Positions 23,108 to 50,563 of a stretch of DNA of 64,000 nt are shown here, piece after piece. Where the stretch lies: NCBI GenBank assembly GCA_965645245.1, contig OZ287086.1:434001-498000 (forward strand), given 5' to 3'. Each line of letters starts with the position of its first letter. The first letter of the stretch is position 1. This stretch comes from Massalongia carnosa (lineage: Eukaryota). The position numbers were made by a program, and so were the translations under genes. A model generated the notes under the pieces. That model did not search any database. It was not told where the DNA came from and worked only from the letters and a program-made list of their open reading frames with translations.

Positions 23108-26100
23108 ATGATGATGATGATGATGTATTCATACTCCGATATGACACCGGCCGTAGGCCGGCCCATGCGGGCAAAGCTATCTAAGTTATGTTACATGGAA
23201 AACCTTTCACAGGTGTAAAAACCATGTCCCATGATACCCATCCGATGTGACTACGGGTCCACGTCGGGCGGGAGACGCAGTGCAAAAGACGTGTGGGAAC
23301 TGTAATGCCTTGTGAAAAGAGAAGAAAGAAAGAAAGGTTCAACTATTGTTGATTTTACAATAATGTTGATGCTAGTGAGAATTGATTCAATAAGCCTGTT
23401 TTCATTAGCCAAGCAGTTAGTATCTTCAGAGTTTTTGATGATTCGGTCAGCTGCTGATAGTCGCTCGTGCCGGCGGCGCGAAACATCTGTTCTCTATTGT
23501 CAATAAGTCTGCAGAACATGATTACATGTTCTGGAGTTTGTCTGTGCCAGCCACATGAGCAGGCCGGTGAGGTGACGGAGGGCACCCGTCGCTTGTAGAG
23601 GAAGTCAGCTAACCCGATCTTGCCAGTGCGGATTTATGTTGTTAGAGCGCTTTCTGCCTTTTTTAGCTGCGTGTGTATTTTCAGCCGTTTTTTGCTCAGT
23701 GGGACTGATTGTGCTATAGAGGGTTCGATGACGCGATTTGATATGCGCACCACGAGTCGTTCCAGACCTTCATTTGTCGTGCTTTGATTATTTGCATCTG
23801 CTTGTGTCGGGCCGTTGCAGCAACGGTAGCTTCGCGGTGCCACGCCGGGTAGACTTGGAACCATGGTGGGTGTGCCTTTGGTGGTTGAACTATTTTTGAG
23901 TCGATCAGTAGGCTTTTGGCCTAGATGTGTTTCAGCTCTCCCGGGGTGGGCTTTTGAAGTCGTTTGCGACCTGCCTTGCCTCGAAGTTTTTCAGCTATTT
24001 TGTTGCATGCGGAGGAGATGATCTTCAATTGGCCTCCGGCTCGGAGCCGGTGCCTTGCCTTTGCTTGTAGCATGTCGAGATGCGTGTCTATGGGCGCTAT
24101 GAATGTCTCTGCTTCTAGTACTGAGATGGGAGTGGCTTTAAAGGCACCGGCTATGGTGCGAAGGCAATTGTTTTGCATGACGGAGAGCTTGCTCGTTGAC
24201 GTTTTTGACTTTTTGACTTCTTTGGGCATGTGCCATACGGTTGACCCATATGTCATGGCCGGACGCACCACGGCACTGTAAACCTGCCTTGCCTTGGCGA
24301 AGGTGGCACCCCAGGTTGATGTGGAAACTTTTGTCAATGCCATGGATTGTTTGACCATTTTCTCTTGCGTTTTGCGAACGTGCGGTCCCCATTTCAATTT
24401 GGTGTCGATTTGTAGGCCCAATACTCTGATGTCCGTTTTAGGTTCAATTTCGGTGCTAGCAATATTGATGGATGCAGTCATGTTGAATCTTTTGGGATTT
24501 CTGGACAAGTGTATGAGTTCGTACTTCGTCGGAGCAAATACGGATCCGTGCCGTGAAGCCTACGTCTCACATTGTCTGTGTATTGCCTCTAGAGTTTTGC
24601 AGTTTTCCTCGGTGCTTTTTCCATATGCCAAAGTGTTTGCATCGTCTACGAATCCTATAGCACTTGTGTTTTTGCCTAGTCGATCACATATTTCCAATAG
24701 ATCTGCATTGTAAAATAGGTAAAGAATGGATGACAGGGGAGAGCCCTGCGGGATACCCGTTCTTACCGCAAACCGCCCGGTGGCTTTTCGATTTATTGCT
24801 AAAGTGGTGCTTCGATCGCTCAGAAAGCTGTTTAACCAGTCGGTGATCCATTTTGGAACTTTTCTTTTCCGTAGGTTGTGCGTTAGTCGATAATGTGATA
24901 CCGTATCGAACGCGCCGGCGACGTCCATGCTTAGCAGTGTGGCTACTTTGTCTTTTCCCTGTCCCCAAATCATGTGAACCTGTTCAGTTAGCAGTTCCAG
25001 TGCTGACTCTGTGGATCTGCCCTTCCTTGCTCCCATCTGTGTGTCGGGTAGGAGCCGGTGTGTTTCCGCTAGATAGGTTATTTTCGATCCAATGATGGAT
25101 TCCATAACTTTACTGAGCGTGTTGAGCAGTGCAATTGGTCGGTAGGCTTTCGGCGTGGTATAGTCTCCTTTGCCTATTTTTTTCAGCGCTATTGTGTTTG
25201 CCATTTTGAAAGCCCGCGGGTGGTACGAGTGTGTGACGCACGCCTGAAACAGAGGTGTTAGTAGTTCGACAAGTTTTTCGCTGCATGCTTTGAGTATTCT
25301 GTTAGATATGCCGTCTGGGCCCGGTGCCTTATCGGACTTGAGCCGACTCAGGGCCGTCGATACTTCTGACTTGGTGATAATTATTGGGCAGTGCGGCGAT
25401 GTAGGATAGAAGGATCCTTCTATGTCGCTTAGGTCTGCCGGTGGTGGTGCGGGAAAGAAGACACCTTTCAGCATTTCGGCTTTTTGGTCAAACGTGTCTG
25501 CTACTTGGTCATTGAATTTTAGCATCGGCATTTTGGATACTTCTCTAGATAGATGACTTTTGTCTTTGGCCCATTCCGCTAGCCGCCATAGTCCCTGAGG
25601 CGTTTCGGTGGCCTTACTGATTTCTTGACGAAAGTTTCTTCTCTTTGCCTTTTGAATGATTTTCTGTTTTTTATCATTGGATTTCATATAGTTAGACCAA
25701 TCCGTTAGTTCTAACGTGCTGGACCATATGCGGCGTAATTTCCTTGTGGCTTTTATTATAATCTACCTAGAAACAAGTCATAGGGACACTAGAAACGAAT
25801 ACAATAAAGATGAGGAAGGAAAAAGACAATTGACAACCCGAACCTTCCCCTATATATCCACTATTGCGCTAATACCCATGTGGTATAGTCGCGATGGAAT
25901 CTTCTCGTGACTGCTGGAACAAAATCGAAGGTGCGGGAACGAAATCGAAAGTTCCTGCGCGTTCCATCTACGGTTTGCCCTAGGCGGTGCCGAATTCATC
26001 CGAGTGCCGAGGTCGTGCGGAGTAGAATCGTGACAGCTTTGGTGGCAATGCTGCATTCTTCTGTCCAGAATGGCTTAGCATATTCGCTAGATTTTGCCCA

Positions 26101-27821
26101 TGGAACTGCTTCGTTGATGACATTTTGTAGAAATTTTTGAATCGATTCCGTGTACGCATCAATCTCGGCAGTGGTGCGGGGAGACTCTGGTATAGGGGCG
26201 TGTCGTTCGGCCTCCCTTAATTTTTCCAGGTTTAGAAGTTTCCATGCTCTGCGTTTGATTTTCGGTTGCGGCTCGCTTCCGAGTAGGATGCGGGTTGATA
26301 TCGGTACGTGATCGGACGATTGATTCAATTCTGGTCTGGACATGCAGTGTTCGAGTCTTTCGATTAGATATTCTGACATGAAAACCAAATCTATCGTGCT
26401 AGACGTGTTTCTTGCTTCCCATGTTACGGTGCCTTTCGGCAGTGTCAACGAAAGATTATGATCATCGATTATTTCTAGTAATTGATCAACAGCAGCGTGT
26501 TGTGTGGGTCTTGAGGGACCATTCCAAAAGGGATGATGCAGGTTGAAATCTCCAAGTAGTATGTGATGCGCATCGGCGGTAAGCATGCTCCGAGCCGCCG
26601 GTAAGGTCGTGGGACTGTCAGTGGATGAATAGGAGGCGGGAGAGGGGTTATACACATTATGGACGTGAATTGTTTCCATAACGCCTTCGGTGTAGGTCTT
26701 TATTTTCAAAGTGCACATGTCGGCCGAGGTGAATTCCACCTCCCAGCTGTCAGTGTCTATTAGGTCGTTGACATAAAAGCACACTCTGGTGTCACCTCCT
26801 GGGCGGTATAGGAGGTGAAAGCCGCTTTGATGAGAACTAAGCGATGTGGGGGCGGATGGATTGCGCCACGGTTCCTGTATTGCAATAATATCATAGTCCT
26901 GGGTGTTTGTGTCTGCTAAGAGGGGTATCATAGTACTCACTCTGTCATTTCTGACATTATACTGCAATATAGAGAGGGATTTTGTGTCCCTCATAGGATT
27001 TCCATCGTTTCGGCCGCTGTGTTCGATGTGAACTGAGTTCCTGCCGTTAATGCTACGGAATCTGCACGAGGCCTACCCAGCACTGGTTTTGCTAAGGCCT
27101 TTACCATATTTTCAGGATTCATGATGCCTATATTAGCCCAGGTAGGTGCGTCGTCTCCCCGATGAGGGCCCGGGGGTGTGCCGGATGAGGGCGTAGCGTT
27201 GTGTATTTTTCTTCTCTTGCCGTTTACTATCTTCCACGTTGACGGAATTTCGTCCGTTTGTGTGACTGTGGGTGTCGACTCTCGTTGAAGTTGAAATTGA
27301 AATGAGGGCGGTTGTAATTCGATTGCATAGAGGGGGGCGCGGTTTTGCATTGCTATTTCAGTTTTTCGCTTTTCAGCTTTTCAGACTTTGCATGCTGTAG
27401 ACCATGCTTCGTGTCCCTTCTCTCCGCATACGACGCAACAGCGGTATTGCCCCGTTGTCTCCAGATTGCATTCTTTGCTTTGATGTCCACCGGCGCAGTG
27501 ACCACAGGCGGCGGGATTGCGGCATGATCTACCGATGTGTCCGTATTTTTGGCAGTTGAAGCATTGAGTCATGGTGCAACCACGTGTAAAGCGCTCGCAG
27601 TCCTTTATTTCGTAGCTTTCCATTAGGCCCTCGGTGATGAGCCGGTTAGCCATCTCGGCGGTGGCGACCTCTATATGAAGCGTCGAGTACGCTTTTTTCT
27701 CTCTGATGGCCTTGATTGACCAGGCTACTTTAACGATCTTCAAGTTAGGGTGCAGGCGTGCGTTAGCGGCCTGAAGGTAGGTGATGGCTGTTGATTGATT
27801 GGCCACTTTGATGTTTTCCAC
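23108..27821 (-). mobile_element. Tad1-like non-LTR retrotransposon (LINE), 5'-truncated within ORF1, inactivated
   Basis: ORF1 with CCHC knuckles (CFNCQKYGHIGRSC; CGHCAGGH). ORF2 has an APE endonuclease (IAIQEP, LGDFNLHH, SSDH), RT (KAPGPDG, YRPIALL, GIPQGSPLS, GFVDD) and a C-terminal CxC..H..C finger. The 3' end is ..gaatac(ATC)n at ~23108-23125. Stops at 27381, 24560, 23921 and 23634. Confidence 0.92.
25754..26035. mobile_element. Solo LTR (282 bp) inserted in LINE ORF2
   Basis: 5-bp TSD GCTTT at 25749-25753 and 26036-26040; termini TAT(T)..GTGACA. The second LINE copy has the empty site (single AAAGC at 43477-43481). Confidence 0.85.
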
Positions 27822-28680
27822 AGTCTAGTATTGAATATAATTCATAAAAACAATTTTTTCATCAGCCACTGTCTTCCGTATCACCCTCCTCGTCCTCATC
27901 ACCCTCCTGATTGTCCTCAATATAGTCCTCCTCCCTCTCCTCCTCATCCTCGTCTAGGTCCTCCTCCTTCTCCTCCCCCTCCTCCTCGTCATTCAAAGCC
28001 TTTTGTGTAGTCCTAGGAGTTAGCGGACGAACATTGAAGCTTGGCCGGAAATTCTTTGACAGAGATTGACCGGAGGAACGTGATTCTGATGGAGGAGGAA
28101 TAATTATAGGTTCAGAATCGTGCTCGGATGATTGCTGCTTCAATTGTCTAGCAAATTTGCTGACATCGCGAGCCAAACGTATGCCTATCTATCTTTTCCG
28201 CTTCAAATATTATCTTTGTCACTAGAGTAAACAAATCAGGCTCGGGCTCAGGTTTAGGCTCAGGTTCAGGAGCACTAGATAGCTTAGAAAGACAAGGAGA
28301 AGGCGCACTATTGCGAGTCGGAAGAACATTCCTTGGCTCGGGGAGGAGGGGACGAGGAGGAGGTAAAGGCGAAGCCGAAGGAGAAGCTGGTGAAGGTGGA
28401 TGGAAGATCAGGAATACGGGCAGGAGAGGAAGGCTCTATAGTCGGGTTCAAAGTATTTAAACTGGTGATGATGATCTAGGAGGATTGATTCTAAGCCTTT
28501 GTTTGGATGGAGGTGCTGAGTTCCTAGGCAATTTAGTAAGGCGATGCGAAGGGAAGGAGGGCCATTAGCTACTGCACTAAATTCTGATGTGTGGTCCAAT
28601 TCTGTCGCTTATTTTTTTTTTTTACCGCGCAGTTTCGGGGTTCAAAGTTCGGCACACCATTTTGCAAACGGGTGTACATG
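27822..28680 (-). other. Unassigned degenerate element/gene fragment encoding Pro-rich and acidic tracts, abutting the truncated LINE
   Basis: PEPEPKPEPEP and EEEGEEKEEDLDEDEEE tracts with stops. A possible DNA-transposon-like terminus (tacacccgtttgcaaaatgg) lies near 28660-28677. Confidence 0.3.
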
Positions 28681-29057
28681 GAGGAATACTGAAAGCGAAG
28701 ATGAAAAAAACAACTGATTATCAGAAGTACTAGGTGTCGAACTCGTTTATTCATGAAAATCTATACATGATTCCTTATCCTTCATAAAGTTTTTTGTGCT
28801 GCATTCGTCGACTTTGTAACCTTTGCCACAGACCTTCACTGCCGCGTTTTATAATGTCTGTCACGTGCTACGATGAACCGCTCCCTTGACCTGCCTCTAC
28901 AGGCGGAGCGAGCGTCTACTTGTGCATCTTCCAAATACGGAAACGACGTGTTTACGCGTCGTCCAGGATAGTGCAAACCTCTAGATCTTTTCCGTGGGTG
29001 ACAACCTTCACATGATTCCGTCTTATTACCTTGGCGAGAAGCTGTACAAGCTTTCCG

Positions 29058-30963
29058 CTAGTTACTCTTTCGGACATCCGTCAGCATGAACATAAAGGAT
29101 ACCAATGAAACCGGCACCGACACAGCAATCCATGCCCATATGTGGGTCGATGAGCTGGTGCCAAGCTCAGTCACGTTCATGCCGAAGATCGCGGCCGTGA
29201 AGGATAAAGGAACGAAAAAGAACGCAAGTTTGGTTAGCTTCGCGACCTTTTCCGCCTGATGCAAAGCGTTCTGCGCTTCCTGCGCCATGGCCTTTTTCAT
29301 GATGATTTCCATGCCGGTGTCGCATTCGGCGGCGTGCGCTCGGGCTCGTGCCAGAAGGTCCTCGAAATCTTTGACAATCCGACGAATGGCCATCTCCGCA
29401 GTGCCTTCGTGGTCCTGATAGCGTGGCCAATCGCAGTCCGCCCGGCCCTGAATGAACGTGATAATATCTTGAATGTATTCCACATGTCGCTCAAGAATCT
29501 GCTTGTTGTAAATCACATTCGACAGGGCTTGGCTATCCTGATGCAGTTCGGCCCGTAGTGTGTGCTTAATCAAATTGAAAAACTGTAGGTTGTTGAAAGC
29601 CACGAATCGGAAAAGATCATGCAACGCATAGAACGGATCGCAGGCCATGATCTCAGGTTTAAGTTCTCGACCATAGTTCAAGTGCAGGCGCGAAGCACTT
29701 TGTGGGATATCATCGTGTGATCGTGGTAATCCTGTAGTGCTGGCTAAAGGCTGGCGAGTGCGATGGCTCTTCAACGCAATATTCGCCTCATGTTGAATGG
29801 TAGGAAAATAGTCAACGTACCCAGATTCCGAGCTCCAATGCCTGGACCTCCAAGGCCCGGAAGGGCTTAGACTCAAATCATCACCGGAGTCGAGCCAGAC
29901 GATTGCTTTCGGAAGCGTCAGCATACGGGGCCCCCCTTGTTTGCGCTTAGGATGTATACCTATCCAACCCCTTTGCGCCTCCGCGATATATACTGAAACG
30001 TTTTGTTCAATTGTAAAATACTCCGAGTCATGAGCCGAAAAGTCCCGCACGACGGATTTGCCGAGGTGTGCTTCGGAGTTCCGCTCTCTGGAGAGCCCTT
30101 CAAAATAATCACTCAACAAAGCTCGCGCTTCCTTCCTCAACGCATCTAGCTCTTTCTGCGACACCGGACAGTTTCCTCCGCGTGTCTTTCGCGCACCGAT
30201 TGTAGTTACGCGTAGGCGAAGCATGTTTCGGTTCGTTGAAGGTAGCGAGGGCAGCGAAAAATAATCTGGCCTTCCTGTAGTTGCCGCAAAGTCGCGGTGC
30301 CGGTAGAAGAACTCCGGATCGACGCGGTATTTGGCCCCAATATGATTGAGCCATTTCGGCGACGCATTTCCGCGAAGAAACAGCAGCTTTCCAGCGGTGC
30401 TGGTATCGTCGATTGATCTCTCTTGCTCGTCACGGCCAGTGCGCTTCGCCGAGCCCTCGCACCCGGAAGATGCGCCGTCATTCTCCATGTTGTACAGAGC
30501 TTCGGGTTTCTTCACGTATCGAAACCTCTCCGTCCCCTTCTTTCCCAGTCGGTAAAAGGCCGCGAATTCATCGTTCTGACCGCGGGGATCGGCGGTTGTG
30601 CCCCGAGCGGAGAGCAGCGAAGCATAAGATTGATAGGGTTCCAACAGATACGAAGCAAGGCTGGCAAAATTGTGACCGGGATAGAGCGAATCCCCTATGG
30701 ACTGCTCAGAATGTGCTTGCACTGCGTTGGCGTATCCGCGCGGAGTTACTGCAGGCTTGCACAACACGGTTGTATGTTAGCGTTATCTTTCTAAGCCTAT
30801 GTCATCACAGTTAGTCTGACGAACATTGTTTGCTTCGACCCGGTTTGGAGTGGAAAGGAATGAGGGTAGGCGACTGTCGTCGCCGTGAGTGGGTTTGGGT
30901 TGAATTTGGGTCGGAACTCGACCGCGCTTGCCTACCCGCTGGGGCTACACCGATTGAGGTCAT
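29058..30963 (-). CDS. Fungal CorA-like membrane protein (two C-terminal TM helices with GMN motif)
   Basis: 569-aa open frame with IGAKYRVDPEFF..H, DPFYALHDLF and VAKLTKLAFFFVPLSFTAAIFGMNVTEL..IWAWIAVSVPV. Probable in-frame intron ~29907-29960; the 5' exon (ATG ~30963) is uncertain. Confidence 0.85.
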
Positions 30964-31987
30964 CACGCTCCAGCTATTATTTATGCAGCGCACCGAGGCA
31001 ATCTGAGAATTATGTTAGGTCAACCTTTGTGCAGTTTAGGTGCAAGACCATAGTCCCGGTTTATCAGGAGCTCACCCTGACGACTATACCACTTCAACGA
31101 AGACGAGCGATGGTGATTCAAGGTTCCACTCCCGGTACAATGCAGCACAAGTCCGGGGGTTTAAATAAATGAGATATGTTTTTCATTCTCGTGGTCGCGC
31201 GGACGCAGCTGTCGTGATTTGAGGTGTCACGACTGGCGTTGGCGGTTCTGATTCGTCCAAGCTCCCGATGGAGAATGGTCAGAACCCGACAGCCTGGCTG
31301 ACCGCAGGAGAAAGTACAGTAGAAAATGTGCGTAATAGATCTTACTTCAACGTCTCACAAGCTATATTCTGTCCCTTTCCGCCGCTGAGTTGCCGTGGAG
31401 TGGATATCAATCTTCCCCTTCTATGGGACCCCTATTGCCAAATGCCCCACCTCTCTCCCTCGCGGTTAGATGAACACGATCCTGCCGTGCTAGGCTTAGG
31501 TGCCCGAGCCTGAGTAACTTCCTCATTCCGACCAGTGCAAAAAGAAGCCAGGCAGCTCGAAAGAATGGTGTAAGGTGGTGAGGCAGATAAGGTAAGGATC
31601 TCTCATTGGATCTTATTGATGAATTCTGTTCATGCCAGCGCATTGATATCCTTGAAATAAAGCGCCCAGTTGATTTAGTGTACGCCATACTCGGGTAATT
31701 AATTAATCATGATATTTACATAAGACCTGATAGCACCCAAGACCCAACGGCCTTCGGGCGACCAATAGACTCACCAAGCCTAGAGTCTTGTCCGCCAGAG
31801 CCAGATAACTGAGGGTACGATAGATGAGCTGCGGTTGGGCTCTTTACTGTATACTGAAATTTCATGCATGTGAGTGCGATTTCTGTTAGATTATTATCCA
31901 TCATATCAGCCGAGAAACGAGAGAAACGCGTTCTTCCTGCTCAGAAACAACGCCACTTTAATTGACCAATCAACCTCTCCGATAGCA

Positions 31988-33985
31988 ATGAAGCGCCCAA
32001 CCGTGCATCTCACGTCGGTGCACTGCGAATGGCATTCGGAATCTGACGACTATCGGATCTTCAAGGTTGGCGAGGACGACTATTTGGCACGTCTGTCTTT
32101 CCAGGTGAGTAGACACCCATCGGCAATGCAGAGAAGCTAAGGCTCTTCGCGCCAGCTCCCCGAAATCTCCCATGGACACTCAGAATGCCCTGTAACGGTT
32201 ACAGTACTTCCGGTTAATCCCCACATATCAATCACAAAAGAATGGCTCGACCGCAATCTACGCATATGTCAAAGTGACGAAATCTTCGATCCGATTTTTC
32301 TTTCCAGCCTTGTCTTCGTCGGTGCCGCCAAGGAGGACATGACAAAAACACCTGAAGCCCGGGAGCTGATCGCACGTCTTGACGCTAAATGGATTAAATT
32401 TGTTCCAAAAGAGCGATGCCCTCAACAGCTGACGCTTGGGCCTCACATACTTTACCACTGCCGGCTCTGGCAGGCTTATAGGCTATGCGATGATGTGTTT
32501 GGAGCCTTCATGATTGGCTTGTACCCACAGAGCCCCCGTAAGTCAAGGCACGTGATGGGATATGAATGCAAAGTCTTACGTTAACGGCACCTAGATCTAA
32601 AAATACCATGGTACAAGGAGCTTTTCGTCGCAGGGAAGAGCTATCAAACCATCAGCATTGCGATACCATCTCGGGCCGACTCCTTGAACTTTTCCAAGTC
32701 ACGCCCTTTAGCAGGCAGACGTATCGTGGTGAAGGACCTGTTCCGTCTGATGGGACTCAAGACCTCATTGTGCAATCGAGCCTATCTCGACGTCAGCGAG
32801 CGGGCTAACCAGACTGCATCTGCCGTGACAGCTTTGACGGACGCAGGGGCTCAAGTGCTCGGGATGACCAAGCTTAGTTCTCTCATCTCCCGAGAGGAGC
32901 CGACAGAAGCCGTTGACTATCCGATGGCTTTTAACCCCCGAGGTGATGGCTATCAGTCCCCTGCTGGAAGTAGTAATGGCAGCGCCGTTGCTGTCGCAGC
33001 CTACACTTGGGTGGATTTTGCAATCGGGACCGATACATCGGGCAGCGGCAGACGACCTGCGCTTGTAAATGGTATCTTCCAGCTACGGCCAACCCATGAT
33101 GCTATACATCTCGAGGGTATGGTGCCCACGTTCGAGGGTTGGGACACACCCTGCTTGTTTGGGAGAGATATCACAAGGTTCGAGGAGATCGCCCGTGTTT
33201 GGTATGCTTCAAAAATGTTGTCTAAGCGCCCCAAGCGTCTCAAGAAACCTGCCATCATCTATCCGTTGGATTTCTTCCCGGTTCAAAACATCATGCAGAT
33301 GGACATTGTCGATCTCTTCATATCCGACTTGGAGAGATATCTAGGAGTCGTGATCATTAAAGTATCCATCACTTCAATGTGGGATCAAGATCCGCCTCTG
33401 GAAGGCAAAGGTCAGTCGGTAGAAGACTACTTGAAAGACACGGTGATCAATAGCTATTACCGTGATTTTTATAACAGCACTGACAAATTTCGGGCAACGT
33501 ATCGGGACAAACATCACAAGGAACCGTTTGTCACTCCGTTTAATCATTGGCGCTGGGAGATAGGCGAGCAGGTCTCTGAGGCGCATTATAAGGATAGCAT
33601 GCATCGCCTTTCGGTCTACAAGCAATGGTTTTTGAAAGCTGTGATGCAAGATGACGAGCTAGAAAGCCTCCTCGTGCTTCCGATCGCCAACGTAGAGCCC
33701 AACTACCGCGACACCCCGCCGCCTGAACCCACTCCACCAACGGGGTTTGATTCTTTGTTCATTCCTCCGATCCTGGGTTCACCGGACTTGGTCGTTCCTC
33801 TCGGTGAAATTCCATACCACTCGCGCATCAGCAACAAGCAAGAGTTTCTGCCCGTGGCAGTTGATATCGTAGGGCTTCCCGGCGCTGATCTTGTGTTGAT
33901 CAAGACAATACAAGAATGCTTAATTGCAAGCGGAAGAAAACAAAAAGTCCACACCGGCTCTAGGATGTTTTTAGAGAATATCTAA
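31988..33985 (+). CDS. Amidase signature (AS) family enzyme with N-terminal extension; 3 exons
   Basis: ATG at 31988; intron donors at ~32105 (gtgagt) and ~32538 (gtaagt). IAIPSR..PLAGRRIVVKD (Lys), FNPRGDGYQSPAGSSNGS (cis-Ser) and GTDTSGSGRRPA (nucleophile Ser); the triad is intact. Confidence 0.9.
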
Positions 33986-34157
33986 AGCTGTTTATCGGGC
34001 TTTCCTTGGACCAAGGGGTTCGCTCGGCCCCGCTGCTTCCATTTAGTATTTCCGTCCGGAATGTGCCGTTCCATTGTACGTATCACTAGAAGCTAACAGT
34101 TTTCATCAATCATCTTTTGACATAATCCTAATACTGACATCCACCAAGCAAAATACT

Positions 34158-37100
34158 TCACTTTGACCAAAACGTAACGAGTGCGTCGAAATCCTGCTCT
34201 GTAAGGTCTTTGTATCCTTTAGTCTCCTGCGGTGAGAGGCTCTTCAGCATCGCCGCGGCCTGCTTGAACATGACCATAGCTCCCTGCTCGTCACCAAGTT
34301 CATACATCACCTTCGCCTTTAGAAACGATGTTCTACCGATTTCCGGCTTGTAGGCCGTTTTGTCAGTGTTCCACACTGAAAGTGCTTGATCCACAAAGAG
34401 TAGAGCCTTTCTGTGATCCCTATGCCGCAGGCAATGCTGCGCAACCTTATGGCAAACATCCGCCGTTCGATGGTGATTATTCCCTAAAACCACTTGATAG
34501 GAAGCAAGTGCTCTTTGATGATAGGACTCGCTCTCCTCAACGAAGCCTTGGTCGGCGCGGACGTTTCCGAGTGCATGTAGCAGTCGTCCTGTCCTACAGC
34601 GCGGTTAACTGCCCATTTGTATCAAGTCCTGCCGCTCACGCTTACCGGAACGATTCGTGATCGTCCTTGCCGAACATACTTTCCCTGTCAAACAACCCTT
34701 GTTTCAACACCTCATATGCCTTTTCGAGACGATCCTGCAGCCAGTACGCGAGTCCTAGATTCGCTAACGGGATTGAGAGCATATACTTGTTAAAATTTGA
34801 TAATTCCTTGTACGTGTCTATGGCTCTCTGGAAACTTGTCGCTGCTTGAACAATGTTGTTGGTCATCATCAACGCGGTGCCCATTTGATTGTAAGCTATC
34901 CCAAGCCGCAGATCGTTTTTCCCGTTTTTCTCAGTTATCGTTTCCCGGATTTTCAACAAGGCAGCGTTGTGGTAAAAACACGACTTGGCGTCATTAGTCT
35001 CGTTGGCTACAGCTCCTAGACTGTAATGAATATCGGAGAGCAGGTCTTCAATATCTCTATGCGAGTTCTGTTCGCAAATCTCGTAAGCTAAGCGAAGAAG
35101 ATCCCTATTGCTATCAGAGCTTTGGGAGTTGCCCTTTTCTGTCTGCCACCTGCTCCCAAGGTCAGTAATTAAGCAGATAGAGACCTGTAGCTGTAAGAAC
35201 AGCAGCAAGGACAAATGGGGAAGACACCCACCAGCCGGCCTCGTTTAACAGCATCGCGAACTTCACATCTAGATCCGAATCTCCTTTTAGTTCATGCTCG
35301 ATGTACAAGGTCCGCAAACAGAGGATATGCGGATAGATCCTTTGACACAAGGCCCACCTTTCGATATTATGCCGCTTATCTAATGACGCTTTCGGCCAGA
35401 CAAGATGAACCAGGTTAACAGCAATGGTGAACCACCACAGTCTTTCTTGGACATCCATCGTGCATCGTACAATATCTTGCAGCAAGCGATGAGTCCAGAG
35501 CTCACCTTTCTCTTCGTTACGACGAACAAGCGACCCACCCAGGAGCTCTGCCCGTGCAAAATTGTACTCGAACTTAGTTTTAGGGAATTCTGAAGGCACC
35601 TCTAGGCTCGTGGGGTGAGACCTAAGAAGCTGTTCAGGAATGAAATCGGGGATACTATCCGGATCTAGAAACGCGAGAAGTTTCAGCAAACTTCTTGAAC
35701 TCGGCTTAAGCATTTCAATGGCCCAAACTGTTGCAACACTGCCCCGAGCTGCTAGTTGGCGTGGTTGTAGCTCTAACCTGTACAACGCTAGTCTCTCCGT
35801 CTGGTCATCATACGTGCTTAGAAAATCCGAGTAAGTAAGCATCAGACGATGAATGATGCCAGCCATTTGAGATATTGCAAGGGGAAGGCCACCTAATTTC
35901 TTTCCAATCTGAAGTGCGTCGTCTGGCTGGCGCGTCTTACCTACTATTTTGTATAGTAGATCTCTGGCATCTTCATCGTTGAGTGGTTTGAGATCGATGG
36001 CCAACGAATTGGATGAGAAAGTGTCTTTGGCAAGTGGATGTCGGCTAGTGACCAGGACAGATCCGCTGATAAAAAAGTGAGTATAATGCGCAAGAACGTC
36101 TGGATTATCTGCGTTGTCGAATACGAGCAGCCAGTTTGCTTCCGCTGTTCCAATAGAGTCGTTTTCGTGGTCGAGGAACTTTTTCGGATTCGAGAGCCAG
36201 CCCTTGGCTAACTCACGAGAGATAACCTGGCGCTCTGTAGTATCACCGGTTTCTTCAAGGCCAAGATATGATGCAATCTTCGCGACGTCGGTATCCAGCT
36301 TATCCTGATTGTCAGCACGCAACCAAAAAATAGCGTCAAACTTGTCCTTTCTCGAGAACACAAACTCTAAAGCAATCTCAGTCTTCCCTAACCCTCCCAT
36401 GCCGCAAATAGCTGCGTATCTTCGCTGCTGTGACTCGGAAGAGACGAGAAGTTCCTTTGTTGGCAGTAGAGCAGCGTCTAGTAGCTCCAGCACATCTCCA
36501 CGCCCGACGAAGTTACTGTTCTGCTGAAATGTCTCTACCATAAAGCACGGAAGCTTCGCCTTCCTTCGGACGGGGGAGAATTTGTCTATGATTGGAACCA
36601 TGATGGTGTCGAAAGCCGTCGAGCCATGGCTAGCTTGTCCAGTGTCGTCTTTTTGAGCGTCGCTCGTTGTCTCTGAGTTGGCTCTTTTACTCAACGCTTG
36701 AGACACAGCCTCAGCCTAAACCATATTGTAGGAAGAGATAGGGCCCACCATTTCGCATTGCGCTGAGTGACGAAGTGCTGCTTGCTGTTGAGCTCGGCGC
36801 ATTCCGAAGATGAACTTTTCGTGTCAGCGAACCTGCTCCAGTTCTCGGGGACAAACCAATCTGAAAGCGAGAAGCTTGACCGACATGTTTTCATGCGCTC
36901 TGCGATGTTTTGCACAGACCTGTTAACAACATCCATAAGCCACCGCAGGACTTGGTTCTGGGCATCTTCAGAACCATCTACTAGCTTGTGAAGACCGAGG
37001 TGGTTCAGCTGAAGACCGAGAAACTGTTCATAAGGCGACTGCGTGGTGCAGAATGCTTTGTCCACGAGCTACAAAGTTAGCCAGTAGCTCTATAATCTAA

Positions 37101-37964
37101 TATGAGGTTGAAGAAGCTCACTATTTGCTTTGAAGACTTGGCAAAAAAGCTAGACTTCTCGATTTTGGTTACTCGCTTCTCGTAGATGGACATGATATCG
37201 ACATGAATGTTCATGTCTTGAAATCGGTTCGCTACATCTTTGAGCGTCCAAAAGTCTTCGATTAGATCAGACATTTGTTGTTTGCTAAAGACTCCGCCAT
37301 TCGAGCAGCATTTGAGAAGGAGGAATATTCTATCCCGAAACTCTTCTTGATTTGGCTGATTATGCGGTGTTCCTAGAAACATGATTCCAGAAATCAAATT
37401 TAGGACATGAGCATATCTGTGGTGCTTTTGATTAGCCATAGAGAGAGCCTACACCAATTGTCAGATGTAGAAGAAGCGCCTTTATCACGGTCATACCTGT
37501 TTGACAATGGTGCCTCCCAAGCTGTGGCAGATGAACATAATTGGGCGTTGAGACTGCGTGCAATTAGTAATCCTTGGTAGAACAATCCCATGGCACCAAT
37601 GAAAAGCCACCTTTGTCTCGGCGTAAAGAGCGTATATAGCATTTAAAAGATCCTCCCCAGCTGTCAACAAGCCACGCCAAGAAAAGTCTTCGTCGACTGT
37701 CAAATCATGATCAAAGGCAATAATTCTGGATTGTGCGTTGCATCCTGACAAGCCGTCCAAAAATCTTGGAGACAATATAGCCCACTCTTCCACGCCTGGG
37801 CATCCAGGCCTCGGCCCGGGCACCAAGATGAGGCTCACAAGCCAGTCAGTAGGTAAACGAGGTAATGATATCTGGAGATGTCCTTACTCGAGATCTGTAG
37901 CTTTGTTCGGCGAAATGCGGAGCTCGCGCAGGGCCCCTGGCAGCCGTTCTCTATCAGCGTACAT
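34158..37964 (-). CDS. Fungal NLR: N-terminal SesB-like alpha/beta-hydrolase, NB-ARC, TPR repeats; multi-exon
   Basis: DLILVPG..RIIAFDH..RPIMFICHSLGG..GIMFLGTPH..SIYE..LNH. NB-ARC FVGR, GMGGLGKT, WLLVFDNAD, VLVTSR, LGGLPLAISQMAG. TPRs AYNQMGTALMM, LANLGLAYW, LGNNHHRTADVCHKVA. ORF breaks coincide with GT..AG introns; the start is approximate. Confidence 0.88.
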
Positions 37965-38745
37965 AATACCAGCGACGCCCGAAACCTGTAGTTATGAAGA
38001 GAAGTTTCCAGGAATGACACTGATGTGGTACCCAGCTCTTGAGGCACAATTTCTGCGACGTGAAAATTCGAGCAATATAAGGTCAATTACCGACTTAATG
38101 GCGATTAAATTCAGTGTGTTGTTATTCATGCAAGTTGGTCGAGAAGAGATATATTGCTCATCCCCGCATTAGTTGCTTCTAATCTTCATGCCAAACGCCT
38201 TATCCATCAAACAAGGCAACCTAACCATATGATTGCATCATCTGTAGCACCTACCTGGCTTCCCACTTGGACGAAACCACGTCAGTACTGATATGCACGT
38301 GCAGCAAAGCAATGGTCGAAGCAAGTCCGAGGTCTGCATCTTCTCGTGCAGGTGAGTTGTTTTTTATTTTATTAACTCATTAAGCGTATGCATCCTAAGG
38401 CTATGACGCTGTGACTGCTATTTATGGCAGGTGACTTAGACGTGAGGCTGAAATGCTTCGCTTCAGCCCCACTACCTCCCTCCTCTTCAATACACCGTTG
38501 CTTCAATTCAGTCCTCACTCATCAACCTGTTTATCGGCAAGATGAAGCCATTTAGCTCAATAAACGTCAATTCAATAGCCTCGCAACAAAGGTCATGAAT
38601 CGGGACTGCCGCATCATCCCAAGATCGCTGAATAACAAAGGTGTATAACCTTCTGCACATCAGCAAAGCGAAGCCTTTGAATTCAACAAATCATAAGTCA
38701 AGACTCACAAGGTAAACTCCGAAACCTGGGCTGCGGCATCCTCAC

Positions 38746-39033
38746 ATGTCGGCTGAAAACCACAGTAGCATACCCTCCTCCTTCCTCACGATGCCTGAAG
38801 CCAATGCCGTCAAAGCTCAACCTTGGAAAGTGGGCTGGCCTCCTGGGCCCCCAAACAGTGAAGAAGCTACGCAGAAGTCCGGTACGCAACACGGATTCAA
38901 GAAGAATGAAATGGTGGTTATGGATGGCAATATCGCGCCTAATGATGGCAATGCCACGCCTAAGGATGGCAATGTCGCGCCTAATGATGGCAATGCCACA
39001 TCTAATGACTCTGATCCTCCCAAGCTGAAGTGA
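38746..39033 (+). CDS. Small hypothetical protein with four 7-aa DGN-x-x-P/S-N/K repeats
   Basis: 95-aa ORF containing DGNIAPN-DGNATPK-DGNVAPN-DGNATSN; true start and expression unproven. Confidence 0.4.
   Translation: MSAENHSSIPSSFLTMPEANAVKAQPWKVGWPPGPPNSEEATQKSGTQHGFKKNEMVVMDGNIAPNDGNATPKDGNVAPNDGNATSNDSDPPKLK
38923..39006 (+). repeat. 4 x 21-bp tandem repeat (2 x 42-bp higher-order unit)
   Basis: gatggcaatatcgcgcctaat / gatggcaatgccacgcctaag / gatggcaatgtcgcgcctaat / gatggcaatgccacatctaat. Confidence 0.95.
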
Positions 39034-39324
39034 CCGAAATTGTCGACCAATGTTGACGGTGTGGCTGAGTGAGGATGAATGTCAGTCGTTCATCGAGGGC
39101 ACGCTTCCTGGGAGTTTGTTGTTTCCGATATCAGCTAAAGGGCGTTTTTACACATAAACTTATTTTCCGAGAGCCATTCAATTTATCACCACACATGAAG
39201 TGCACGTCTAAATTCACTCATAACTGTCCCCAAAGTATTCAAATCATATCCGATGAATGTTCGAGCAAACCTCCTTTCTGACAAGCCGAGGCTCTATGAA
39301 ATGTGCCTGGCCGCCTACCGTCCT

Positions 39325-40453
39325 TCAGCGAGTCCCATAAATATTACTCAGTTCAGGAGGTAAACAATCTGTGTTGGTGTAAAACAAATACGCTCTGCAC
39401 TCGATACTTTCACGCGGGGGTTCAGAAGGGTCGGCCATGGGGTTGAAGAACCCGGTATGTGGACAGACTGAACGCGTCGAAATATTAGTAAGACTCATCG
39501 AATGAGGGTTCCTAGAGAGCGAGTGCATACCTGCATTCCTTAAGTTCTCGGACGTCGCGCTTTTGAAAATCAAGACTTCGGATGGAAGTTGCCGCGGGAG
39601 GTGAAACCATTTCTGGGATGGGTTGTGGTGGATTTGCAAGTTCTCGGTCTTACAATCGCGATAAACGATGTCACCGGACATCGTGTCTGCTGCAAAATCG
39701 ACGCTGGAGGCATCACACAGGGCAAGCGGCCAGTCTTGTAATGGTCCGCGGAGAGGTCTCCATGCGCTAAAGCTTGTCAGCGGCAGAAAAAGACGTTAAG
39801 GTTTAGGAGGCCTCCATTACTTGACAATCTGCCAGGGGCTTTGCAACAGCTTGTCTGCCTCAGGCCCGTACACGTTCCGGAGCATGAGCTGCGCTTCTTG
39901 TCTGGTGAAGTCTGACCAAATCTTTAGAAGCATGCCAGAGTCGTGTTGACTTTCACTTAGCTATGTACTCACCAACATGAGCCATGGCGGTAGGCTGGGG
40001 ATGTTGGTAGTCCTCGCCGGTAGAAAGGGGAAACATATGATGACGGCGACGCACCTAAAATCGTCAACAAGCACGTCACCTGTATATGGCACTATCTTCA
40101 CGAACAACATGGTCTGAGATATAGACGTGGGAAGCGCCCAGGTCCTTCTTCAGTGCTTGCTTGAGTTCTTCCAGATACACGGTGTGGATCTTGGACTGAT
40201 CCTTGAAATCTTCATAAGACATCTGTGACTCCAATGACATTAAGCCAAAACCACATTCATTAAAGTCAAGATCCTCCAAATGTGGGCGCATGTTATGAAT
40301 CGATATTGTATGGCGCTCGTGCAGAATATTCGATTGATCTATGGAAATGTGAGGCGGATAACGCATACTGTACGGCTTTTCATGATTGTACCGCGGATTT
40401 CTTGCTAGGAAGTATAAATCTGCCTCTAATCCATCATGAGGGGTAGAATTCAT
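39325..40453 (-). CDS. AsaB/CmcJ (GA4-desaturase-like) family oxygenase; multi-exon
   Basis: LYFLARNPRYNHEKPY..FNECGF..DHVVR | HPQPTAMAHV-DFT | WRPLRGPLQDWPLALCDASSVD..HNPSQKWF..EVLIFK..CPHTGF..RESIECR; several short introns. Confidence 0.8.
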
Positions 40454-41080
40454 GTTTATTTTCATATAGGAGGATGGCAACAGGGGATCCAACCTGCCTT
40501 GGCCTCGGTAGTAGGTAGCTTCGAGAGGGAGAGGATATGAAAGGGTTGAAGTAAAGCCACCTATCAATGTCGACGCCAGCACACATGATTACGAAGAAGT
40601 TCATGACTCTTCGAAAGCCTGCTACTGCCAATGAGCGGCTAGCTCTTAAACCCGTAAATTAGTGAATGACACCTGTGCAGTATTAGACACAGTTTGCCGT
40701 CAGCCCTTAAGTGACGGATCGTGAATAATAACAAGCAGGAGTTCAATTATCGGTCACAAACATTGCGAACAGCATGCAGAGCAGTCATCAAAGAATTTGA
40801 CGATAACCTTTATCATACACGGAATATGAATAAATAAAGAAATGTAACGTTGTCTTACCTAAGTATCGAAATCAACTTTGTTCTTTTCGAGTCTTTCAAA
40901 GAAAAATAATAGACTAAAAGCAATATTGTTACGTAAATACTCATAGTTCATAAGATTTCAAAAACCTATCACGGTTCGATTATAATCATCTAACTATCTG
41001 ACTTTTTAAACACCTGATTATTCTGATTGTCAAGTATAAATTATTTAAATCTTCAAAGAATCGTTGCGATTCTGTAAAAC

Positions 41081-43618
41081 ATGGATGGGAAATAAAAGAG
41101 AGATGAATTCATTCAATCGGCAAAGCGCGCTCCTAAGTGAGCACTACGAAAAGAAGGCAAACCTCCGTGAGAGGATTAAGGAGTACCTTAATCGAGTGGG
41201 CATCGTTGGTGACCCGGTGGCACTATAGTTGCTGAAAAACTCAGCGGAGCTTTTGCAAGCACAAAAGCAAATTGACGACGAAGTCGCAAAGACGCCCAAC
41301 ATCTTAAACGACACTCTACTATCATACAACAAAAACTGACACGTATTGAACGCAAGGAGACGACTCCTCAAAATTACGCCGTTGCCGCTACGGGTCGAAG
41401 TCGCGATGGACCCGCGCCCTCAGCGAACAAAAACACCAAGCCTCAACAGTCCCCTAAGGACAAAACACCCACACCGAAGGAAGTGCGACGCGCTCGGGAA
41501 ATCACCGTTCACATAATGGAGAATACGGACCAGGAAAAAATAAAGCTGATGCCAACCAAAGAGCTAGTGGAAAAATTGCAAAATGGAATGAAAGGAATAC
41601 GAGGAGTGTCGCGTTTGTTAAACGGCGACATAAGGATTCGTGCTGAATCATTGGAGGCAAAGAAAATCCTGCAGGAAAAGACGGACTGGAGCCGGATGAT
41701 GGCCCGCCTCCACGGCGGTTCACACTCTTACCTTTACCGTAAGGACGAATGGGATCAAGGTGGAAAACATCAAAGGAGCTAATCAATCAACGGCTATTGT
41801 GTACCTGCTGGCTGCTAGTTAACGCACGCCTGCAGCCTGACCTCAAAATCATCAAAGTAGCTTGGTCAGTCAAGGCCATCAGGGAGAAAAAAGCATACTC
41901 AACGCTACAAATGGAGATCGCTACCGCCAAAATGGCCAACCGGCTCATCACCGAGGGCCTGATAGAGGACTAGGAAATAAAGAACTGTGAGCGTTTCACA
42001 CTTGGTTGCACCATGACCCAATGCTTTAATTGTCAAAATACGGTCATATAGGTAGATCATGTCGCGATCTCGCCGCTTGCGGTCACTGCGCCGATGGATA
42101 CCAAAGCAAATAATGTAATATGGAGAAAACTGGCAATACCGCCGATGTTCCGTATGCGGAGAGAAGGGAAATGAAGCGTGGTCCACAGCATGCAAATTCT
42201 GAAAAGATGAAAAGCGAAAAAATGAAGTCGCTATGCTAAATCGTGCTCCTCTTTACACAATCGAGTCATAACTGCCGTCATTTCAATTTAATGAAGCATC
42301 GACACTCGCAAACACACAAACGGACGAACTTCCGTCAACGTGGAAGACTGTCAATGGCAAGAAAGAAAAATACATAACGCTGCACTTCTACCAGGTTATA
42401 GGCATAATGAATCTTGAAAATATGGTTAAATCCTTAGCCAAACCAGCGTGGGACAGACCCCGCACAGAATCCGTATCAGCGACGGAGTTACCTCAGTCAT
42501 GCCGGCCACAGTGGTCGAAACAATAGACATTCTATGAGGGATACAAAATCCCTCTCGATATTGTAGGAATGATAGAGTGAGTACCATGATACCCCTCTTA
42601 GCAGACATAAATACCTAGGATTATGATATCATCGCAATACAGGAACCGTGGCGCAATCCTTCCGCCCCAACATCGCTCAGCTCATATTAAAGTGGCTTTC
42701 ATATTCTTTATCGTCTAGGTGGCGACACTAGAGTCTGGTTTTATATCAACGATTCTATAGACACGGAAAGCTGGGAGATAGAATTCCCTTCGGCCGATAT
42801 GTGCACGCTAAAAATAGAAACATGCACCGAAGGAGTAGCGGAGGTGATTCATATACATAACGTATACAATCCCTCCCCTGCATACTATTCGTCTACTGAC
42901 AGTACTTCCTCCTTATCGACCGCTCGGAGCATGCTAACTGCAGGCGTACATCATATTTTGCTTGGTGACTTCAACTTGCATCATCCCTTTTGGAACGGTC
43001 CTTTAAGACCAACACAACATGCTGCAGCTAATCAATTATTAGAAATCATTGATGACTCCAATCTCTCGCTAAAATTACCGAAAGGCACCGTAACATGAGA
43101 AGCAAGAACAATTTTAGCACGATCAACTTAGTCTTCGTGTCAAAATATCTAGTTGAAAGACTTGAACACTACATTTCTCGACCAGAATTAAATCAATCGT
43201 CCAATCACTTGCCGATATCAACCCGCATCCTACTCGATGGCGAGCTGCAACCAAAAATAAAACGCAGGGCATTGGAAACTACTCAATTTGGAAAAATTAA
43301 GGGAAGCCTAGTACCATGCACCTTCACCGGCGTCTCCCCGTACACCTGCCGAGATTGATGCGTACATAGAATCGATAAAAAAATTCCTACAAAACGTCAT
43401 CAATATAGCCGTTCCATGGGCGAAACCTAGCGAATATGCTAAGCCATTCTGGACTGAAGAATGCAATATTGCCACGAAAGCTACACGAAAATTATGCCGC
43501 ACATGGTCTGACACACGAGACCTAGTGGATTGGTCCAACTATATGAAATCCAATGACAAGAAACAGAAAATTATCTAAAAAGCAAAGAGGACAAATTTTC
43601 GTCAGAAGATCAGTAAGG
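41081..43618 (+). mobile_element. Second, more decayed copy of the Tad1-like LINE (ORF1 plus endonuclease), 3'-truncated
   Basis: Colinear with 25600-27821 on the opposite strand (KVAWSVKAIREKKAYSTL; LGDFNLHHPFWNG; KPFWTEEC); many stops and frameshifts; ends at ..cagtaagg ~43618. Confidence 0.88.
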
Positions 43619-43873
43619 AAATGACGATTCTCGTCTAGTGAATCGGGGGGGCGTCGTTGGGCACGACAAAAGAGCTCCACATGGTTGCCACAGTGCAGCC
43701 ACAACAGAAGGGACGATATAACTTTTGGCCAAGATAGCTACAGAGTCGGGGAGCAATTCTGCTTGATCACAATGACTATTGAGGGCTTGTATGTGTAACG
43801 AATGTAATTTCTAGTGCTGGCTAAAAAGTGCGAAAGTTTTTCTTTTCGAATCTAAGAAGGTGAATAAATTATG

Positions 43874-47800: not shown

Positions 47801-48941
47801 TTGCTTTGGCGAGTTTCGCCAATGTCTCGCTGATCAATGGAATGGGGTATCGACTTTTCTCCGTGATATTATTCAGATCTCGATAATCTACGCAAAAGCG
47901 AAGACCCCCGCCTGGTTTCCTGACCAATAGTAGCGGCGCGGCCGCCTTTGACGAGCTCGGACGAATAAACCCTTTTGCTAAGTGCTCATCTAGATATTTT
48001 CTTACCGCGGTCAATTCCTGTTCGGACATGGGCCGATAATTCTTGATGAACGGGGGCTCGATCCCGGGCATCAAATTGATTTCGTGATCCTCTTTTCGAT
48101 GAGGTGCCAACTCGTCTGCCTTAGCCCTCATGAAGACTTCAATCTCGCCATGATAGGCCTCGGGTACTCGTTTTTTCAATTCTTCCAGAGTATATTCGAC
48201 TTTGTCTTTCATGAACTTCTCATGATCGTCGCTGGTGACTGCGTTGATACTTGAAGAAGTCAGAAGCTTCTTCTCGTACCTATCTAACTTCTTGTTGAGC
48301 TTTTCCCTCGGATAGAAACAGTAAGTCTGATGACCCGATCTTCGAAGAAGTTTCATAAATCGCTTCGGGGTGATGGACTGAATATCGAAATTTTCAAAGG
48401 CCTCGTTCTTTGCTGAGGCAGTCGTTTCCTTCTCCAAGATTGTGGATTCAAATTTTGAGACTGAATGAGATCGAGGTGCGCATCCCTTACTGACGCACCG
48501 ATTGGAGAACGTCATGGTGCGTTCAACCCAATCAATGTGAGGGTTATGCTCCTGCAGCCATCCATCACCGATGATCAAGGTATGATTACCTATGTCGGCC
48601 AGATAGCAGAATAACTTTTCCTCATGATCTCCGATTCTGACGGGAACGATAACGGCCTTATCAATGATTTGATGGACTTTTCCATCCCCAAGTTCCAGTC
48701 TGACCCTGTCTCTTTTTTTTAGTCTAATGGTCTCTAGTTTTCTTTTGCGCGCAAAGGATTCATGAAGAAATTGAACTTCACTTCCGTTATCGATCATCAA
48801 CTGATTTTCATTAGAGGCTATACTACATCTAAATAAAAGATGCTTGCCCGGAACGAGATGATCGACAGAAAGAACAGATGCTCTAACAACCCTTAATGAA
48901 ACTTCTCGACATTCCTGATGGCGACTATCATCAGGAATCAT
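44872..48941 (-). CDS. pol: Gypsy Pol: protease, RT, RNase H, integrase, chromodomain (1-nt frameshift near 45280)
   Basis: LMIDNGS; LRFCVDYR, YLVMPFGL, YLDDVLV; ETDASD..YDKELLAIV; H..H..C..C, LSLDF, IVHDRG, DGQTE; EYEVLEIVDCR..WQPW. Confidence 0.92.
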
Positions 48942-50530: not shown

Positions 50531-50563
50531 GTTTTCTGATTAGCCTAATGATTCTGATTGTAG

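Follow-up and report, generated by a model that had tools for sequence, protein, structure and literature searches.

Fungal clusters that couple a NOD-like receptor (NLR) to an effector have been described as nwd2/het-S, het-eN/sesA/sesB and pnt1/hellp, and in the accessible parts of these reports the coupling passes via amyloid motifs or proteases (PMC3321046, PMC12881547). In the nwd2/het-S type, as portrayed there, an amyloid motif is common to the N-terminus of the NLR and the C-terminus of its effector. The present work concerns a window of 64,000 nucleotides from Massalongia carnosa (assembly GCA_965645245.1, contig OZ287086.1, positions 434,001 to 498,000 of the forward strand; coordinates below count from its first letter), in which five neighbouring genes between 29058 and 40453 encode a CorA-like membrane protein, an amidase, an NLR with NB-ARC and tetratricopeptide repeat (TPR) domains, a microprotein (also called the peptide below) and an oxygenase. 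We conclude that this five-gene NLR cluster is real and widespread, and apparently undescribed. Its genes are intact, linked across fungal classes and co-diverging, and they keep the P-loop of the receptor, the amidase triad, the oxygenase ligands and the GMN motif of the channel family; the block is very probably a functional, co-inherited unit. Like nwd2/het-S-type clusters, to the extent of the published parts cited above, it joins a STAND/NLR gene to a candidate membrane effector in an order and orientation that vary by species, and a SesB-like domain is present. It departs from them in that the NLR bears an N-terminal domain of its own, the membrane protein is of CorA-like type, and further genes for an amidase, an oxygenase and a microprotein come with it. 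A search with the peptide profile only recovered no copy of the peptide in NLR, amidase or CorA homologues, except in one run-together gene model (P0157). We place the cluster with the fungal systems of NLR plus effector, as a variant for which there is a fair chance that it represents a pathway of a new kind.

The receptor itself follows a known architecture. The same order of SesB-like, NB-ARC and TPR domains, together with swapping of the N-terminal domain, is reported in the accessible part of a survey of fungal NLRs (PMC4986451), which also places near-identical repeats in about one-fifth of the TPR regions and sets fast-evolving allorecognition NLRs apart by repeats more than 85% identical within a gene. 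The window NLR falls outside that category, as no direct-repeat family lies within its gene. Unlike the architecture at large, its subfamily lacks near-identical repeats, is conserved in the TPR region and at the C-terminus, and diverges in step with four neighbours. A CorA domain does occur in NLR models given as supplementary rows, four in PMC12258605 (one of them NB-ARC/TPR/CorA; files 5 and 12) and two in PMC4986451 (file 6), while the word amidase is absent from the main texts of PMC12258605, PMC9815663, PMC4986451, PMC13449251 and PMC12881547. Judged from listings, with most subscription journals outside the search, the literature held no description of the cluster or of the peptide motif. 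The KK-1 cluster was rejected as a match: it has NB-ARC/TPR and amidase genes around a non-ribosomal peptide synthetase (NRPS), and its main text names no CorA (PMC10512319). The preprint bioRxiv 10.1101/2024.08.16.608140 likewise has no bearing on the cluster.

Two bacterial systems invite comparison as well. In type III CRISPR, a CorA effector is paired with a signal-degrading enzyme, NrN, according to the accessible text of PMC10600005. Here too, a divergent CorA-family protein with an enlarged N-terminal part adjoins a gene for a hydrolytic enzyme; unlike in that system, there is no Cas10 or SAM-AMP synthase, the hydrolytic partner is of the amidase kind and an NLR forms the upstream switch. 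Neither Cas10 nor an NrN/DEDD phosphodiesterase turned up in Pfam scans of the island, of the long open reading frames (ORFs) of the window and of related loci. We treat this likeness as an analogy, and not as a tested homology of the soluble domains. By their model descriptions, the FxSxx-COOH (FxsT, NF040586) and HaaT (NF041717) families also tie NB-ARC-TPR proteins to peptide-modification loci, whereas no radical-SAM enzyme is present here and the scores remain below cut-off. Among the homologues scanned, P0138 and P0144 reached 237 and 245 bits with NF040586 (cut-off 300) and unrelated NB-ARC-TPR controls 156 to 353 bits. An FxSxx-COOH TPR identity for the NLR was ruled out, since its relatives score below cut-off and unrelated proteins do equally well or better.

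A sequence-only reading of the window had described its recognisable genes as intact, and this holds for all five, which translate without a stop once introns are removed (GT-AG, with splice sites predicted from the letters alone); full-length homologues of the four larger proteins align with few gaps. The coordinates and orientations that it gave were borne out. The CorA-like gene (29058-30826, minus strand) and the amidase gene (31988-33985, plus strand; two introns, 629 aa) stand head-to-head, and the amidase and NLR genes (NLR at 34158-37964, minus strand; eight inferred introns, 1112 aa) tail-to-tail, with 172 bp between their stop codons at 33985 and 34158. Beyond the NLR come the small ORF of the microprotein (38746/38791-39033, plus strand; 95 aa from 38746, 80 aa from the ATG at 38791) and the oxygenase gene (39325-40453, minus strand; four introns, 299 aa). 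The CorA-like protein measures 567 aa if an in-frame 54-nt intron (29959-29906) is kept and 549 aa if it is removed. Acceptors other than YAG (GAG or AAG) are used by three introns of the NLR gene and by the first of the CorA-like gene. Nonetheless, the eight-intron NLR model is unlikely to be forced, because the Cirrosporium protein P0138 aligns with it over the entire length (1115 columns, 49% identity, 18 gap positions). Identity amounts to 49%, with few gaps, between the amidase and the full-length homologue P0027, to 46% between the CorA-like protein and the full-length P0002, and to 54% between the oxygenase and the N-terminal end of Fusarium model P0157. Pfam families matched on the island are CorA, Amidase, NB-ARC, DUF7779 and TPR.

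The gene-neighbourhood co-occurrence that was proposed as a check is found: homologues adjoin in many other genomes, among them those of Cirrosporium, Fusarium, Xylariales, Microsporum and Penicillium. Homologue searches yielded 17 CorA-like proteins (16 besides that of the window), 259 amidases and 158 long NLRs. Linkage was read among the best 120 of the 259 amidases (119 besides self) and the best 120 of the 158 NLRs, all cluster representatives only, so the counts are lower bounds. A listed amidase or CorA stands on the same contig as at least 9 of the 25 best NLRs and as none of the 95 other listed NLRs, two of which (P0209 and P0243) are gene models that fuse amidase and NLR. A contig is shared with a listed partner by at least 5 of the 16 CorA homologues (at least 4 of the 11 whose contigs measure 10 kb and above). 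All five pairs looked up, from Penicillium, Annulohypoxylon, Xylaria, Durotheca and Fusarium austroafricanum, are one to six accession numbers apart. Locus tags tell the same for Cirrosporium (3261 CorA, 3264 peptide, 3265 NLR, 3266 amidase), Microsporum (4116 NLR, 4117 CorA), Loxospora (4207 peptide, 4209 amidase) and Peltula (2937 peptide, 2939 amidase). In Fusarium decemcellulare, a single gene model (P0157) joins the oxygenase to the NLR, to CorA and to motif 2 of the peptide, and the amidase follows at the next locus tag. Hosts include Xylobotryomycetes, Lecanoromycetes, Dothideomycetes and Lichinomycetes, and presumably also Eurotiomycetes and Sordariomycetes.

A metagenome scan made with the amidase alone gave 55 loci in 33 groups (merged at 95% DNA identity; one group merges two loci, L021-L024 and L034-L035), 16 of which have at least 7 kb of flank. 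Among these well-flanked groups, the NLR family is present in 7, the CorA-like gene in 7, either in 8 and both in 6, leaving out of the count a different NB-ARC-TPR gene at L004/L020. Peptide and oxygenase accompany the amidase in four groups, and all five genes are found in three (L016/L017, L028 and L042), of which L028 is broken and closely related to L016. A partner is also present in 5 of the 17 short-flank groups. Loci keep the same membership but vary in gene order and orientation, and the genes farther out change from one to the next, with housekeeping genes among them. Partner-bearing amidases occupy most deep branches of the amidase tree, and all nine contig-linked NLRs fall within the clade of the window protein. 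The comparison of gene trees came out as anticipated, the trees agreeing and the pairwise identities being correlated between amidase and NLR (rho 0.79, n=16, p=0.0002), CorA and NLR (rho 0.74, n=10, p=0.0002) and amidase and CorA (rho 0.52, n=8, p=0.02).

The NLR is composed of a SesB-like alpha/beta hydrolase (CHSLGG, His251), NB-ARC, a DUF7779 winged-helix region, TPR and a conserved FWSK end. It matches NB-ARC, DUF7779 and TPR_12 in Pfam, with TPR_12 and TPR_10 above cut-off. The hydrolase exons of the window gene have no Pfam match, and the label SesB-like refers to the nucleophile-elbow motif and to Abhydrolase/PGAP1-type Pfam accessions on homologues, not to a SesB profile. Both Walker A (GMGGLGKT) and Walker B (LLVFDNAD) are intact. 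In a motif alignment of 77 proteins of 1000-1200 aa (fused and short models left out), GxGK is invariant in 77/77 and Walker A, Walker B and HRxxQ are conserved across the set. The hydrolase is less constant. The window copy keeps Ser111, Glu209 and His251, in line with the earlier proposal that this domain makes a lipid or amide signal, but the nucleophile is Ser in only 58 of the 77 proteins, Gly in 12, missing in 5 and another residue in 2. The Gly variants include the amidase-linked P0155 and the Fusarium cluster models P0156/P0157, and at loci L013 and L025 an unrelated N-terminal region takes the place of the domain. Because of this substitution and replacement, the hydrolase cannot be the general signal maker, and that part of the proposal is weakened.

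Mean identities over 562 close, non-independent pairs are 0.73 for the hydrolase, 0.83 for NB-ARC, 0.75 for the winged-helix region and 0.80 for TPR; among the 19 proteins of the window's clade they are 0.36, 0.52, 0.40 and 0.48, respectively. In 512 of the 562 close, non-independent pairs, conservation is higher in TPR than in the hydrolase. A conserved TPR region without near-identical repeats fits a fixed ligand. A complex prediction for residues 345-1100 of the Cirrosporium NLR with the peptide, run without alignments, scored 0.00 in two runs and is evidence neither way. A sister NLR clade ending in FWAR is large and short-branched, with no visible partner among the matches listed. Its branches (P0164-P0204 region) are very short across Aspergillus, Penicillium, Colletotrichum, Metarhizium, Pseudogymnoascus and others, which may reflect strong constraint or horizontal spread. 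The Penicillium NLRs P0161 and P0163 and the Penicillium amidase P0135 nest among Sordariomycete sequences, which may reflect a horizontal transfer of the cluster. Besides, a related NB-ARC-TPR model from Mycothermus (P0239) is run together with a lysine/ornithine monooxygenase, which hints that other branches of the family may stand beside other oxidative enzymes.

The microprotein is defined by two motifs, K-x-QPWKxxWP and then GFxKGE-x-h-x-h-DG, separated by a variable linker of 11-27 aa. A profile built from five copies and run against 1.84 billion representatives found 178 proteins at E ≤ 0.001; among the best 150, 141 have a length of at most 230 aa (median 76), and the other nine comprise a fused DUF7580 model and eight long proteins that are treated as chance matches. 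Across 104 aligned members, the Pro and Trp of motif 1 are invariant, and conservation reaches at least 90% at its Gln, at the second Trp and at three Gly. Two members of 72 codons differ by 29.5 synonymous against 8.5 non-synonymous changes (ratio of non-synonymous to synonymous rates, dN/dS, 0.04, with dS near saturation), and on these codon comparisons the microprotein is evidently a real coding gene under purifying selection. An SH3-like fold, suggested by a resemblance, was ruled out: no Pfam family matched more than one of the 104 members at E ≤ 0.1, the PDB gave only two matches with E > 4 and no solved relative, there was no usable Atlas match, and the peptide alone was predicted without fold or strands (predicted template modelling score, pTM, 0.25). 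A search for prokaryotic relatives with one short, weak pattern gave 127 matches, none confirmed. Twenty members were looked up, the first ten picked partly for likeness to the window's copy; 8 clusters have a named organism, all fungi, and for 3 of the 8 a listed amidase is at most two locus tags away. The window copy is the only one among six translated with four tandem 21-nt (7-aa) units that open with DGN (38919-39002, plus strand; repeat family D1), which represent a local expansion where the second motif ends. In each of the five DNA loci or groups with both genes (the window, L013, L016/L017, L028 and L042), peptide and oxygenase lie side by side and convergent; in the Fusarium model P0157 they occupy opposite ends.

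Other genes are occasionally met around the peptide and the amidase. A DUF7580 gene lies between peptide and NLR at L013:1899-3861, DUF7580 is fused to the peptide in Diplodia gene models (P0270, P0416), and a subtilase with FG-GAP repeats stands behind the amidase at L014. Several peptides carry the cassette more than once (P0315, from a lichen fungus, P0327, P0338, P0375, P0377, P0405 and P0400), with an ELACxRK-like tail after the motifs in all but P0400. By its sequences, this multi-cassette subfamily has the closest look to multi-core precursors of RiPPs (peptides made on the ribosome and modified after translation).

The remaining three proteins are better anchored to known families. The CorA-like protein (Pfam CorA, E 3.5e-8) has a divergent cytosolic funnel, a long stalk helix and two C-terminal helices with FGMN; its AlphaFold model (17 sequences; mean predicted local distance difference test score 69, pTM 0.70) matches Thermotoga maritima CorA over its length with a Foldseek probability of 1.00, and shows large insertions in the N-terminal domain. 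GMN is at least 90% conserved across the 17 aligned sequences. With fold and GMN kept, a role as membrane effector, as advanced by the sequence-only reading, is plausible. The amidase (Pfam Amidase, E 1e-25) has an intact Lys/Ser/Ser triad (VKD, GSSNGS and GTDTSGS at residues 212, 291 and 311), and its nearest solved structures, all distant, are GatA, allophanate hydrolase and peptide amidase. The oxygenase belongs to the CmcJ/NvfI family of Fe(II)/2-oxoglutarate enzymes (NCBIfam NF041278, 114.9 bits for the C-terminal piece alone, cut-off 80), with HxD, the distal His and Arg all present, and a homologue matches the NvfI structure 7de2. Sequence comparison leaves the substrates of amidase and oxygenase unreadable.

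These features can be assembled into a Pezizomycotina NLR module, with a core of NB-ARC-TPR receptor, amidase and CorA-like channel and an input pair of microprotein and oxygenase, a delimitation that we put forward tentatively. The earlier mechanism had left out the peptide and the oxygenase, although both are a conserved pair in the cluster. The reading that we favour, with confidence short of an even chance, is a fixed-specificity NLR that reads an oxygenase-modified peptide and opens the CorA-like channel, while the amidase matures or clears the signal. The oxygenase would modify the peptide at a conserved motif, and the slowly evolving TPR would bind it, or would sense the modification or its loss in the style of a guard receptor. 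NB-ARC could then exchange nucleotide and oligomerize, which would open the CorA-like channel and cause a cation flux, followed by growth arrest or cell death. The amidase may mature or destroy an amide or peptide signal, by analogy with NrN beside CorA in type III CRISPR, and the N-terminal hydrolase may be an exchangeable accessory domain. Indeed, swapped or Ser-less N-terminal domains fit the N-terminal swapping known for fungal NLRs from the accessible part of PMC4986451. In its widest form, a eukaryotic NLR pathway with a co-encoded, modified ribosomal peptide as ligand and a dedicated CorA-type ion channel as output, an equivalent in fungi of signalling by peptide plus TPR and of the CorA effector of CRISPR, the idea is conceivable and still doubtful.

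Several observations weigh against the favoured reading. Each mechanistic step is one that we infer, and half of the well-flanked amidase groups (8/16) lack any partner gene. At L005, CorA, amidase and NLR genes share a complete contig of 16.4 kb that leaves about 3 kb and 5 kb of flank free, and neither peptide nor oxygenase is seen there; these two are also unseen in L034 and L036/L037, so they are not obligatory neighbours, and their absence counts against a RiPP pathway as well. L013 has NLR, amidase, peptide and oxygenase, with no CorA within 10 kb of the amidase. In L016/L017 and L028, the cluster encloses a transporter of the major facilitator superfamily (MFS), an efflux type that is more characteristic of biosynthetic clusters. 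The L016/L028 peptide pair has a dN/dS of 1.7 on 7 changes, the L028 copy being without ATG in a broken cluster. Finally, tree congruence would also follow from plain vertical descent, and linkage was the reason for choosing the pairs.

An alternative that we hold fairly unlikely is a new fungal RiPP cluster, in which the microprotein would be the precursor, the oxygenase would cross-link or hydroxylate it, perhaps at Trp-x3-Trp, the amidase and hydrolase would trim it, NB-ARC-TPR would serve as scaffold or regulator, and the CorA-like and MFS proteins would export or protect. The short, cytosolic-looking precursor with fixed motifs and variable linker, the cassette repeated two or three times in 21 of the 141 short members, the lack of a predicted fold and the constant facing of the oxygenase gene are all in its favour. 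So are the MFS genes just mentioned, a P450 and an O-methyltransferase beside L028, and the absence of NRPS, polyketide synthase and terpene-cyclase families from the scanned flanking ORFs (125 of 216 listed ORFs plus 2, of at least 150 aa). On the other hand, 12 of the 93 members with both motifs stop one residue past motif 2 and hence have no downstream core, the trio of NLR, amidase and CorA also occurs without the peptide, and the NLR match to the FxSxx-COOH TPR model is below cut-off and non-specific. To our knowledge, a CorA-type channel is not a known peptide exporter. Like dikaritin clusters, for which a mining rule is given in the accessible part of PMC11109268, the locus places a short repeat-bearing gene beside an oxidative enzyme and sometimes a transporter; unlike them, it has no Pfam match to UstY/DUF3328 in the window or scanned flanking ORFs and no near-identical repeats delimited by KR in the window peptide, and an N-terminal hydrophobic stretch is found in just 7 of the 141 short members. 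Going by sequence, the cluster thus lies outside the rule of UstY/DUF3328 plus a dibasic-delimited repeated precursor.

Closer to the sequence-only proposal, the trio could be a cell-death module in which a lipid or amide second messenger binds the cytosolic domain of CorA, the peptide and oxygenase forming a separate accessory pair. This is unlikely in our view, even though the trio is the most widespread part (6 of the 16 well-flanked groups), the window hydrolase retains its Ser, Glu and His, the large insertions in the modelled CorA-like N-terminal domain could form a ligand site, and an analogy exists with CorA plus NrN, as far as PMC10600005 could be accessed. The hydrolase appears dispensable, with Ser replaced by Gly in 12/77 NLRs including cluster-linked ones and the whole domain exchanged in L013/L025, which counts against a small-molecule messenger. 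The proposal also leaves unexplained why peptide and oxygenase remain linked in L013, L016 and L042, which are three deep branches, as well as in Cirrosporium, Loxospora, Peltula and Fusarium. Linkage without functional coupling, as an old accessory-gene block passed on by vertical descent or as mobile cargo, is quite improbable. A transposon-rich window, a second diverged copy apparently in the same sequencing runs, broken or partial copies (L021-L024, L025, L028) and the partnerless half of the well-flanked amidase groups would suit it. However, membership is kept while order and orientation vary, flanking genes change from locus to locus, housekeeping genes included, and the proteins have diverged to 30-50% identity. 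Such identity is far past the depth where fungal gene neighbourhoods usually survive.

The surroundings of the cluster are of a different nature. A broken long interspersed nuclear element (LINE) lies on the left at 23921-28400 (minus strand; right edge approximate), with endonuclease and reverse-transcriptase pieces split by stops, and another of the same family lies inverted on the right at 41150-43620 (plus strand; edges approximate; inverted repeat pairs I1-I11). A composite transposon formed from the two was ruled out, the copies being only 75-85% alike; with this likeness, they are best read as two old insertions and not as the ends of one element. The earlier statement that almost everything around the island is decayed is accurate for these two relics but overstated for the window, which also has long open frames (a 1240-aa Ty3 pol, a 435-aa ORF at 5545-6852, a 393-aa DUF7924 ORF and a 325-aa DDE transposase). 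Transposons are abundant in the wider window, and its decay is not uniform. There is no signature of repeat-induced point mutation (composite index positive in 0 of the window's 2-kb bins), and an Rfam search of 28000-42000 gave no match. The Ty3/gypsy-type element at 45267-50539, with gag-like frames beside its 1240-aa open pol, is apparently young. Two DUF7924 genes lie at 15774-16955 and 60326-61713, the second split across two frames. Accessory-type genes also occur at 3343-4401, 5545-6852, 12903-14636 and 448-2215 (a P-loop GTPase-like ORF with a coiled-coil tail, an F-box-like ORF, a coiled-coil gene and TPR pieces); the P-loop GTPase-like and F-box-like ORFs, neither with a Pfam match, are labelled on motifs that we presume to recognize.

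Contigs about 81-91% identical to the CorA-like gene and NLR (29063-38093) occur at a depth similar to that of the exact copy in three runs (X1-X3, from two samples). This suggests a second, diverged cluster copy in the same organism or in a co-occurring relative, from which the proteins P0003 (70%) and P0019 (88%) may derive. In the last TPR exon, 6 of the 10 codons changed between this copy and the window are synonymous. The bins 38148-38631, between the NLR and peptide genes, and 28468-28951 reach at least 30-fold summed depth in the three runs, as short high-copy repeats, and have no second copy in the window and no Rfam match. Nine of 16 regions have a motif ACCCCGC upstream, where shuffling gave 6-7 at most; it resembles what we take to be a common fungal GC-box and was not counted as evidence.

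To conclude, the triggers and effectors of most fungal NLRs are an open question according to the accessible text of a 2025 review (PMC12881547). Within 11 kb, the cluster unites a receptor with a candidate ligand, with enzymes that are candidates for modifying and clearing it, and with a candidate effector, and thereby makes the question of NLR activation and output directly testable. If the locus were instead a RiPP pathway, it would represent a class of fungal ribosomal peptides missed by the mining rule of repeats plus UstY. Under either reading, the microprotein family, with well over a hundred divergent members and no entry in the copy of Pfam searched, offers a marker for further clusters.

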